DNA of 42,140 bases from Rhodospirillales bacterium (GCA_046756945.1 JBHHXI010000003.1:1-42140); one strand, 5' to 3'; shown: positions 22,883 through 24,479, counted from the stretch's first letter. Numbers and translations are program-made. The notes: a model not told the origin generated them from the letters alone.

Positions 22883-23581
22883 GTGCCGGATTCCGGTTCA
22901 GACACCCTGGCGGGGATCGATCTGCTGGCTGGCCTGACGCCCGAGCAATTGAGCGGGTTCGAGCGGCTGTGCCGGTGGAAGCGCTATCCCGCCCGGGAAC
23001 AGATCATCGACCGCCAGAGCGAGACCAGCGACGTTTTCTTCATCGTCAGCGGTCGCGTGCGCGTGGTCAATTACTCGGTATCGGGGCAGGAGATCACCTT
23101 CAACGACATGGCCGAAGGCAGCCACTTCGGCGAGCTGGCCGCCCTCGACGGCCAGCCCCGTTCGGCGAGCGTCATGGCGCTGAGCGACAGCCTGATCGCG
23201 TCCATGCCGCCGGAGCATTTTCTGGGGATGCTGGAAAAGTATCCGTCCGTGGCCCGGAAGGTCATGGTGCATCTGGCCCAGGTGGTGCGCGTCACCACCG
23301 ACCGCGTCATGGACCTGAGCACGGTGGGGGCGACCAACAGGGTGCATGCCGATCTCCTGCGCCTGGCGCAGAATTTCGCCGGCGCCGGCAACGAGGTGGC
23401 CATTCATCCCATCCCCGTGCACGGTGACATCGCCAGCCGCGTCAGCACCACCCGCGAAACCGTCGCCCGGGTCATGAACGACCTGGCCCGCCAGGGCATC
23501 GTCGAGCGCAGGAAAGACACCCTCGTCATCCGCAACATGAAGCGCCTGCAGGACATGGTCGAGGAAGTGCGCGGCGGGTAG
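22883..23581 (+). CDS. Crp/Fnr-family transcriptional regulator with cyclic-nucleotide-binding domain
   Basis: FGELAALDGQPRSA phosphate-binding cassette; HTH IASRVSTTRETVAR; GGGAG RBS before GTG at 22883; no Fnr cysteine cluster. Confidence 0.92.
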   Translation: MPDSGSDTLAGIDLLAGLTPEQLSGFERLCRWKRYPAREQIIDRQSETSDVFFIVSGRVRVVNYSVSGQEITFNDMAEGSHFGELAALDGQPRSASVMALSDSLIASMPPEHFLGMLEKYPSVARKVMVHLAQVVRVTTDRVMDLSTVGATNRVHADLLRLAQNFAGAGNEVAIHPIPVHGDIASRVSTTRETVARVMNDLARQGIVERRKDTLVIRNMKRLQDMVEEVRGG

Positions 23582-23643
23582 GCGACGCGGTCCCGTCTGC
23601 GCCGCGCCCCGGCGGCGGAATTTCCCGTTCAATTAAATGCCCG

Positions 23644-23665
23644 TCCTGTGACGACGGTCACAGGA
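23644..23665. promoter_or_regulatory. CRP-type binding site
   Basis: TCC-TGTGA-CGACGG-TCACA-GGA: exact TGTGA-N6-TCACA core (23647-23662) inside a palindrome with 9-bp perfect arms. Confidence 0.8.
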
Positions 23666-23680
23666 GGCGGAAGCGAACCG

Positions 23681-23689
23681 TGACATTCT
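23681..23689 (+). promoter_or_regulatory. Extended -10 element (TGnCATTCT) of a putative class II CRP-dependent promoter
   Basis: Placing CATTCT at -12..-7 gives +1 near 23696 and the CRP box centre at -41.5. Confidence 0.55.
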
Positions 23690-23748
23690 TCGCCTGGGAA
23701 CAACCGGTCGAACAACGGTTCGGCCGGGGGATTGGAGAGGAAACCGTG

Positions 23749-23892
23749 ATGACGACCTGGAAGGCCTTTGTGGTCGCGTTGCTCCTGGTTCTGGCTTCGG
23801 CGGCAGGCGCGTTGCCGATGGAATTCTGGGGTGCCCCGGTCCTCGAGGGCGTTTCCACCGTCTCGAGTGAAACCGCCAATCCCGTAATGTGA
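23749..23892 (+). CDS. 47-aa small protein with signal peptide or single TM
   Basis: GGAGAGG RBS (23734-23740), ATG at 23749 (or GTG at 23746); MTTWKAFVVALLLVLASAAGA|LPMEFWGAPVLEGVSTVSSETANPVM; followed by a terminator. Confidence 0.7.
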   Translation: MTTWKAFVVALLLVLASAAGALPMEFWGAPVLEGVSTVSSETANPVM

Positions 23893-23950
23893 ACCTCCCA
23901 ACCCCTTACGACCCAGACTACGGCCGCCCTTGTGGCGGCCTTTTTTCTTT
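23893..23950 (+). ncRNA. Candidate 3'-UTR-derived sRNA (suhB/MmgR-like architecture)
   Basis: C-rich stretch with anti-SD CCTCCC (23894-23899), then CCAGACTA, then GC hairpin and U-tail. Confidence 0.4.
23922..23946 (+). terminator. Rho-independent terminator
   Basis: GGCCGCC-CTTGT-GGCGGCC followed by TTTTTT. Confidence 0.9.
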
Positions 23951-24113
23951 CCGCCGGGCGCCCGGTTTGACTCGGCTAATCCGATCCTCCATCATTTCCC
24001 GACGGTGATGGCGCGCCCTTTTTGCTCCGGTCCCCCGGCACCGTGTTCACCCCGGCGACGACGGCGATCCCGGCGGGATTGCGCAACGAAGGGCCTGAAA
24101 ACCGGCAGACACC

Positions 24114-24479
24114 ATGGCCAAGACCATCCTCATCGTCGAGGACAATGAACTCAACATGAAGCTGTTCAACGATCTGTTGCAGGCCCACGGCTACGACACC
24201 GTGCAGACGAAGGACGGCAAGGAAGCCATGAAACTGGCCCGCAGCCACCGCCCCGACCTCATCGTCATGGATATCCAGATGCCCCAGATCTCCGGGCTCG
24301 AAATCGCGCGGGCGCTGAAGGCGGATGCCAGGCTCAAGCACATCCCGATCATCGCGGTTACGGCCTGCGCCATGAAGGGGGACGAGGAAAAGATCCGCCA
24401 GGGGGGCTGCGAAGACTACATCGCCAAGCCCATTTCCGTTCCCCACTTCCTGCAAACGGTGGCCCGGTTCCTGGACTGA
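24114..24479 (+). CDS. divK: Single-domain response regulator DivK
   Basis: [56 protein letters not shown] match my recollection of DivK. Confidence 0.9.

Follow-up and report, generated by a model that had tools for sequence, protein, structure and literature searches.

A 42,140-nt stretch of the genome of a Rhodospirillales bacterium (GCA_046756945.1 JBHHXI010000003.1:1-42140, hereafter the window) contains, immediately 3' of the gene for a CRP-type cyclic-nucleotide receptor, what is probably a self-contained transcription unit consisting of a CRP-type box, an extended -10 element, a small open reading frame (ORF) and an intrinsic terminator. We consider it likely that this is a Crp-activated class II unit encoding a small inner-membrane protein. 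The window alone would not lift the arrangement above chance; its repetition in relatives does, and sequence comparison establishes the unit, its geometry and the coding constraint on the ORF. An initial annotation of the window had listed a Crp gene, a box, a TGn-CATTCT element, a hairpin, a ribosome-binding site, a 47-aa ORF and a terminator, and each of these parts is present where it had been placed (Table 1).

A CRP-type box and predicted class II promoter next to crp

The unit recurs downstream of crp orthologues in many families. Thirty loci with crp orthologues were fetched from relatives, with identities of 52-94% leaving the window itself aside. Downstream of these crp genes a perfect box is found in 8 loci and a box with at most one mismatch in 14, and a small ORF starting like that of the window is present in 8. 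A profile built from these eight peptides was used in a location-blind, six-frame search of 201 whole genomes of the same order, which yielded matches at E ≤ 0.01 in 29 genomes from at least 11 families, with rarely more than one copy of the small ORF per genome. Among the best 30 places, a crp orthologue is adjacent in 23, with the small ORF just 3' of crp, and a box with at most one mismatch lies in the locus in 24. Extending the search to 401 genomes sampled across the class brought in two genuine members from other orders, along with one false match. Outside the order, locus L075 contains crp, box and ORF, and in locus L074 the ORF and two boxes lie with divK and the end of crp. A terminator follows the ORF in 21 of 29 loci by a rule of our own, and a GGAG/AGGA-type Shine-Dalgarno (SD) sequence precedes the ATG in most relatives. 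Conservation of the ORF, the box and their spacing downstream of crp orthologues, which the initial annotation had named as one of its checks, was found across these families.

The box is placed at a fixed distance from a conserved -10 element. The window's box, TGTGACGACGGTCACA, is a perfect TGTGA-N6-TCACA palindrome that begins 65 nt past the crp stop codon and is the sole match with at most one mismatch in the 42 kb. A single match of this kind is not rare, as 31 of 100 shuffled windows contain at least one. The whole genome contains five perfect boxes, compared to one match for a reversed control pattern, and 16 boxes with at most one mismatch. Within 160 nt 5' of the ATG, a box with at most two mismatches is found in 25 of 29 distinct peptide loci, the background elsewhere in the same loci being 0.02 per equally long window. 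Anchoring these 25 loci on the box, which ends at position 16, reveals conserved T35 (17 loci), G36 (22), A39 (23) and T43 (23), from which a -10 element is predicted; the window has the conserved A at position 39, as do 23 of the 25 loci. The window's element consists of TG at 23681-23682 and CATTCT at 23684-23689. Its predicted second base is separated from the box by 22 bp, a spacing that passages of a published account give as exclusive to class II CRP promoters (PMC10187061). With a predicted start 7 nt past the hexamer, the box centre falls at -41.5 as the initial annotation had proposed, and the spacing is fixed across relatives. The comparison supports a class II CRP-box promoter that drives the small ORF as its own transcription unit.

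The palindrome is not the crp terminator. The initial annotation had stated that a palindrome serving only in crp termination would refute the proposed module. This possibility is rejected because the box has no T run, keeps a fixed distance to the -10 element and travels with the ORF, which it also accompanies in four loci without an adjacent crp gene (L048, L052, L053 and L063). For the same reasons we read the box as a promoter element of the small gene.

By its domains and motifs the regulator is a CRP-like protein other than the enterobacterial CRP equivalog. Its ORF matches the Pfam families cNMP_binding (PF00027, 2.5e-20) and HTH_Crp_2 (PF13545, 3.4e-13), indicating a cNMP-binding domain and a C-terminal Crp-type helix-turn-helix, and its best solved relatives are Crp-family regulators and CAP. 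A search with the Crp protein for related loci returned five loci, three of them Crp relatives. The translation contains FGELAALDGQPRSA and TRETVAR, confirming both the intact cNMP cassette (FGELA...PRSA) and the RETVAR recognition helix reported by the initial annotation, and the TRETVAR helix is identical in 30 of 30 orthologues. The regulator thus carries the R-E-x-x-x-R helix and the GE...RS nucleotide contacts named for E. coli class II CRP promoters, which have the same palindrome at -41.5, in passages of the same account (PMC10187061). In contrast to E. coli CRP, it scores below the NCBIfam equivalog cut-off (NF008732, 82 versus 266 bits), and activation of the unit is what we infer. 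The same genome encodes a 45%-identical Crp paralogue with the same recognition helix; because the helix is common to both, the box could be used by either protein.

A documented CRP homologue reads the same palindrome. CgrA of Rhodospirillum centenum, likewise a member of the CRP family, is a cGMP-binding homologue which, in passages of two papers, footprints on TGTGA-N6-TCACA in its own cluster beside cyclase genes (PMC4681086, PMC10187061). The systems differ in gene context, since the CgrA operon includes guanylate cyclases whereas the regulator gene described here is flanked by a glycosyltransferase gene and the small ORF. They also differ in the nucleotide motif, which reads RT in CgrA (PMC10187061) and retains RS in the regulator. 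Because of this difference to cGMP-preferring CgrA, the sequence makes cAMP a somewhat more likely ligand than cGMP. Seven class III cyclase domains are encoded in the regulator's own genome.

RNA data provide a weak hint of a separate transcript. They consist of contigs assembled from metatranscriptome libraries of related organisms, in which transcription starts are not visible. Three RNA libraries, which belong to two studies, yielded contigs of 173-204 nt that are 88-95% identical to the window and cover 23703 or 23743 to 23905; the ends of these contigs lie within one base of each other ahead of the terminator stem. In library runs X1-X7, 0.04-0.07 of the sampled words were present. No contig over crp or divK was found in the two smallest runs, although with contigs such absence proves nothing.

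Table 1. Parts of the unit and the adjacent regulator gene, with coordinates read straight off the window sequence
Feature	Position	Strand	Basis
Crp-family regulator gene, 232 aa, GTG start	22883..23581	+	Pfam cNMP_binding, HTH_Crp_2
CRP-type box, perfect TGTGA-N6-TCACA	23647..23662	no strand	Pattern scan; recurs in relatives
Predicted extended -10, TG-A-CATTCT, 21 nt past the box	23681..23689	+	Box-anchored comparison of 25 loci
Predicted transcription start	23696	+	Inferred, 7 nt past the -10 hexamer
5'-untranslated region (5'-UTR) stem-loop, 24 nt	23704..23727	+	Folding compared with shuffles
Shine-Dalgarno GGAGAGG, 8 nt before ATG	23734..23740	+	Sequence; SD common in relatives
Small ORF, 47 aa: K5, hydrophobic segment 6-22, 25-aa acidic tail	23749..23892	+	Family alignment, codon positions, hydrophobicity, frame kept in variants
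Pyrimidine-rich 3' element (CCUCCC ... AGACU) ahead of terminator	23893..23921	+	Covariance model R1, locus comparison
Intrinsic terminator, 7 G-C pairs then T run (stem 23922-23940)	23922..23946	+	Sequence

The small ORF and its predicted product

Judged by its codon positions and by the retention of its frame, the small ORF is coding and under purifying selection. In 16 within-group pairs, differences at the first, second and third codon positions number 117/85/165, and the excess at third positions is clear in single pairs as well (2/0/9, 3/3/13 and 12/7/19). Within the window's genus, at least 15 database variants of the 47-aa form keep the frame together with the motifs EFWGAP and VSTVSGETATP, and it is on this frame retention that the coding constraint in the genus rests.

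The family most resembles a small membrane protein with one membrane-spanning segment. In alignment A2, which compares 29 distinct members, 26 are 28-33 aa long. Residues K5, A10 and L13 are invariant and A6 is nearly so. The hydrophobic segment spans residues 6 to 22 approximately and its N-terminal side carries a charge of +1, so that by the positive-inside rule the N-terminus would lie inside and the C-terminus outside. Beyond this segment, members from outside the window's genus have tails of 6-13 residues that are neutral or acidic and variable, and the 25-aa tail is restricted to the window's genus. We favor a membrane protein because the constrained part of the peptide is its hydrophobic N-terminus and not its tail. 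The initial annotation had offered two products, a small membrane protein or an exported peptide of about 26 aa that might act as a signal. The first agrees with these data and the second is not supported for the family, as invariant residues fall within the supposed signal peptide and the tail is genus-specific.

Searches of protein collections and of the literature returned no named relative of the product. Pfam gave no family for the window's small ORF and NCBIfam none for five family members at E values up to 1. In the ESM Atlas the small protein matched nothing but unnamed clusters, with values of 0.76-0.77 that are too low to count as a lead. In a large collection of 5.8 billion proteins the family forms 63 clusters, and every source name shown is 'hypothetical protein'. 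No paper with the small peptide sequence was found, and literature linking crp and divK with small proteins of these bacteria gave no account of the unit, the single match obtained concerning the Caulobacter iron response. Such an ORF is not mentioned in the passages seen of a paper on Magnetospirillum Crp and of the CgrA regulon paper (PMC4681086).

Combining promoter and product, we propose the following mechanism. A ligand-bound Crp dimer, formed by the regulator or its paralogue, would bind the box centred at about -41.5 and activate a class II promoter in which an extended -10 element stands without a separate -35. Transcription would yield a monocistronic RNA of about 250 nt (from about 23696 to 23946) with a 5' stem-loop, a strong SD sequence and an intrinsic terminator. 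The single helix of the translated protein (residues 6 to 22 approximately) would insert into the inner membrane, so that the N-terminus stays inside along with K5 and the tail reaches the periplasm. There the small protein would most likely bind and modulate another membrane protein, in the manner of other small membrane proteins under the control of regulators.

RNA elements and alternative explanations

Several observations weigh against this account. About half of the crp loci do not contain the unit, the ORF being found in only 8 of 30, and 4 of the 29 peptide loci have no recognisable box. Within the window's genus the codon pattern is flat (4/4/4, 8/11/7 and 6/10/7). What the protein is proposed to do is guessed by analogy, and searches turned up neither a family nor a fold nor a partner for it. 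Finally, six crp loci keep the box, the -10 element and the terminator without an ORF of the family, and in these genomes the six-frame profile search did not find the small ORF elsewhere. The ORF-less loci suggest that the protein is not the sole functional product of the unit.

Both ends of the predicted transcript contain RNA elements. The 5'-UTR hairpin has a 10-pair stem with a folding energy of -18.1 kcal/mol (z = -3.4 compared to 100 shuffles). Stem-loops near the 5' end are frequent among relatives (mean z of -1.27 over 22 loci, 7 of them below -1.5), and their sequence is not conserved. The stretch between stop codon and terminator is pyrimidine-rich in most loci and often contains UUCCC, with RACU often located beside the terminator. 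TTCCC occurs in 9 of 20 lineage representatives compared to a mean of 3.5 in shuffles, a modest enrichment. A count of 9 is attained by some 5-mer in just 6 of 300 shuffles. We built a covariance model, R1, from 16 ORF-bearing loci; it contains only three base pairs and little information, and its score partly reflects a generic terminator. On held-out loci R1 scores 31.7 bits (L014), 29.3 (L004), 28.5 (L026), 25.0 (L075) and 18.0 (L016), the best match in a whole 3-Mb genome besides the unit itself being 23 bits. L014 and L026, which have lost the ORF and kept box, -10 element and terminator, both score above this background. In these two loci a conserved non-coding element, as recognised by R1, survives independently of the ORF. 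Three of the six ORF-less loci are missed by the model, and L016 reaches only an E value of 0.08. Within the window, Rfam gave no match for the unit's + strand; a single sub-threshold match to Hrs1 lies on the opposite strand (24.5 versus 56.4 bits), and 18 loci gave no Rfam match at E values up to 0.1.

These elements could be explained if the transcript were a dual-function RNA that also base-pairs through its pyrimidine-rich, anti-SD-like element, with some lineages retaining the RNA only. Such a role would extend the account of a Crp-activated protein-coding unit, and we put it forward tentatively. It would fit the CU-rich stretch between stop codon and terminator seen in most loci, the enrichment of TTCCC, the recovery of L014, L026 and the out-of-order L075 by a model derived from ORF-bearing loci, and the six ORF-less crp loci with their box, -10 element and terminator. 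A second box in the genome, described below, would drive a stretch of about 85 nt that is likewise CU-rich, terminated and devoid of an ORF. The case is weakened by the small number of pairs in R1 and its generic terminator component, by the three ORF-less loci it misses and by the modest size of the k-mer enrichment, and the ORF-less loci may be decaying remnants. In addition, predictions that the element pairs with the SD sequence of the unit itself are inconsistent, the predicted partners varying from locus to locus, and masking of the SD sequence by the 3' element was dropped as a candidate function. It is doubtful that such an RNA, encoding a conserved 30-aa membrane protein as well, forms the core output of this Crp, with a link of ancient date, throughout the order, which from its divK/pleD-type genes is probably part of the Alphaproteobacteria.

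An exported peptide is an unlikely product of the unit. Here, a cleavable Sec signal peptide would release a free signal peptide, of 26 aa in the case of the window. Peptides of the window's genus do possess signal-peptide-like n-, h- and c-regions followed by a cleavage-type site (ASAAGA then LP), and their tail with its two motifs is conserved in the database variants mentioned above. Based on this site, cleavage by signal peptidase is possible in the window's genus. It does not appear to be a trait of the family, judging from the alignment, in which 10 of 29 members miss an AxA-like site by a crude rule, the invariant residues lie inside the would-be signal peptide and the tails of other members are short and variable. 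The last residue is F or Y in 21 of the 29 family peptides, often after G or P, and such an ending might mark a C-terminus, released or exposed, for recognition; peptides of the window's genus end in V-M, V-L or A-M.

We consider it very unlikely that the product is a type I toxin-like hydrophobic peptide, the translation of which would be checked by RNA structure or an antisense RNA. The product does resemble such toxins in its length of about 30 aa and its one hydrophobic helix, and in the unit the 5' UTR is structured and a CU-rich sequence could pair with the SD sequence. Type I toxins are typically patchy in distribution and present in multiple copies. The small gene is nearly always single-copy, syntenic across many families and under purifying selection, and the SD pairing is, as described above, inconsistent across loci. 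No antisense promoter or RNA was seen, although no search aimed at one was made.

A leader or attenuator of divK, in which the small ORF and the terminator would control read-through from the Crp promoter into divK, is even less probable. The downstream neighbour of the unit (24114-24479) encodes a single receiver domain. Its name, divK, is based on resemblance and on the pleD-like genes that come after the divK-like gene in relatives, as the library used contains no curated DivK model. The unit lies directly upstream of a divK-like gene in 20 of the best 30 places, the position also given in the initial annotation. A functional link to divK is not borne out. The other 10 of the best 30 places, including the whole f5 group, have no divK in the locus, the unit has its own terminator, and past this terminator divK has a promoter-like element of its own (TTGACT-17-CATCAT). 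By regular expression this element is found in 14 of the 30 crp loci, including loci in which crp is directly followed by divK without the unit, and the small ORF is conserved as a protein. Because of the terminator, the conserved divK element and the divK-less loci, we regard the unit as independent of divK; by its genomic distribution it is tied to crp.

The strongly conserved element 5' of divK lies at 23967-23995 of the window and consists of GTTTGACT, a gap of about 17 nt and CCATCAT. Three copies of the small gene away from divK adjoin genes of the cyclic di-GMP (c-di-GMP) type (L048, L064 and L042; GGDEF-EAL, GGDEF or HD_5), and the usual neighbours divK and pleD belong to the same signalling world. 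A link to c-di-GMP genes was rejected: it concerns only these three relocated or divK-less copies, and with 32-43 GGDEF matches per genome their proximity may be due to chance.

The remaining alternative, a chance ORF beside a box that serves only Crp autoregulation or crp termination, is hardly credible, for although the box is a palindrome with 8-bp arms in the 3' flank of crp, it has the promoter-type properties set out above and stays with the ORF where crp is not adjacent, and the genome-wide search placed the ORF at no other kind of site, with constraint at its codon positions.

Other boxes and relation to known systems

Other CRP-type boxes in the same genome are found near several kinds of sequence. 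A second perfect box, within contig C7:26973-27115 (L032:1501-1643), has the same 21-nt spacing to a TGcGACAAT element. The promoter is followed by about 85 nt without an ORF that are rich in CCUC/CUCC and end in a G-C hairpin and a T run. R1 matches the 3' end weakly (14.1 bits, E = 0.62). We consider this stretch a candidate Crp-dependent small RNA. Another perfect box (C7:30049-30064, L033) is located in a gap of 186 nt that separates a gene for a class III adenylate/guanylate cyclase (PF00211, 457 aa) from one for a CBS-pair protein, 66 nt 5' of the start of the latter. Boxes at C7:27736, C7:30049 and C97:8602 have TGTTGATCG in common, a few bases to one side, and one of the three precedes a gene for a Sel1-repeat protein. 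The shared sequence points to either binding by a second factor or duplication of a promoter module. About 1 kb 3' of the paralogous crp gene, a one-mismatch box precedes a hydrophobic ORF of 27 aa that is not related to the family (C90:4523-4700, L070:2224-2400). A repeated design of Crp, box and small peptide at the paralogue was rejected, as no box was found 3' of the paralogue in two genomes of the same genus.

The unit can be compared to two kinds of small regulated genes. MgrB, AcrZ and SgrT are proteins of about 30-50 aa with one helix that are controlled by global regulators and bind a larger membrane protein. The product of the unit resembles them in kind only, without homology. A different comparison is offered by the CRP-linked dual-function RNAs of Gammaproteobacteria (Spot 42/SpfP, AzuCR/AzuC and VcdRP/VcdP), which, in the parts of the literature drawn on here, are short RNAs that encode 15-29 aa and also base-pair. 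AzuCR and VcdRP are repressed by CRP. Spot 42 is likewise repressed by CAP according to passages of a published account (PMC10187061). In contrast, the geometry of the unit implies activation, its product is a predicted transmembrane helix and there is no sequence relation to these RNAs.

Each ingredient of the unit is of a known kind, making the finding moderately surprising. To our knowledge, few direct targets of CRP-like regulators outside Gammaproteobacteria are well defined. The unit represents a predicted target that is physically linked to the regulator gene, and across many families its geometry is that of a textbook class II promoter. It lends itself readily to reporting the signal of the regulator, cAMP or cGMP, in these bacteria, and it adds an unannotated family of small membrane proteins. 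If the transcript also functions as an RNA that base-pairs, the unit may be the first CRP-activated dual-function RNA outside Gammaproteobacteria.

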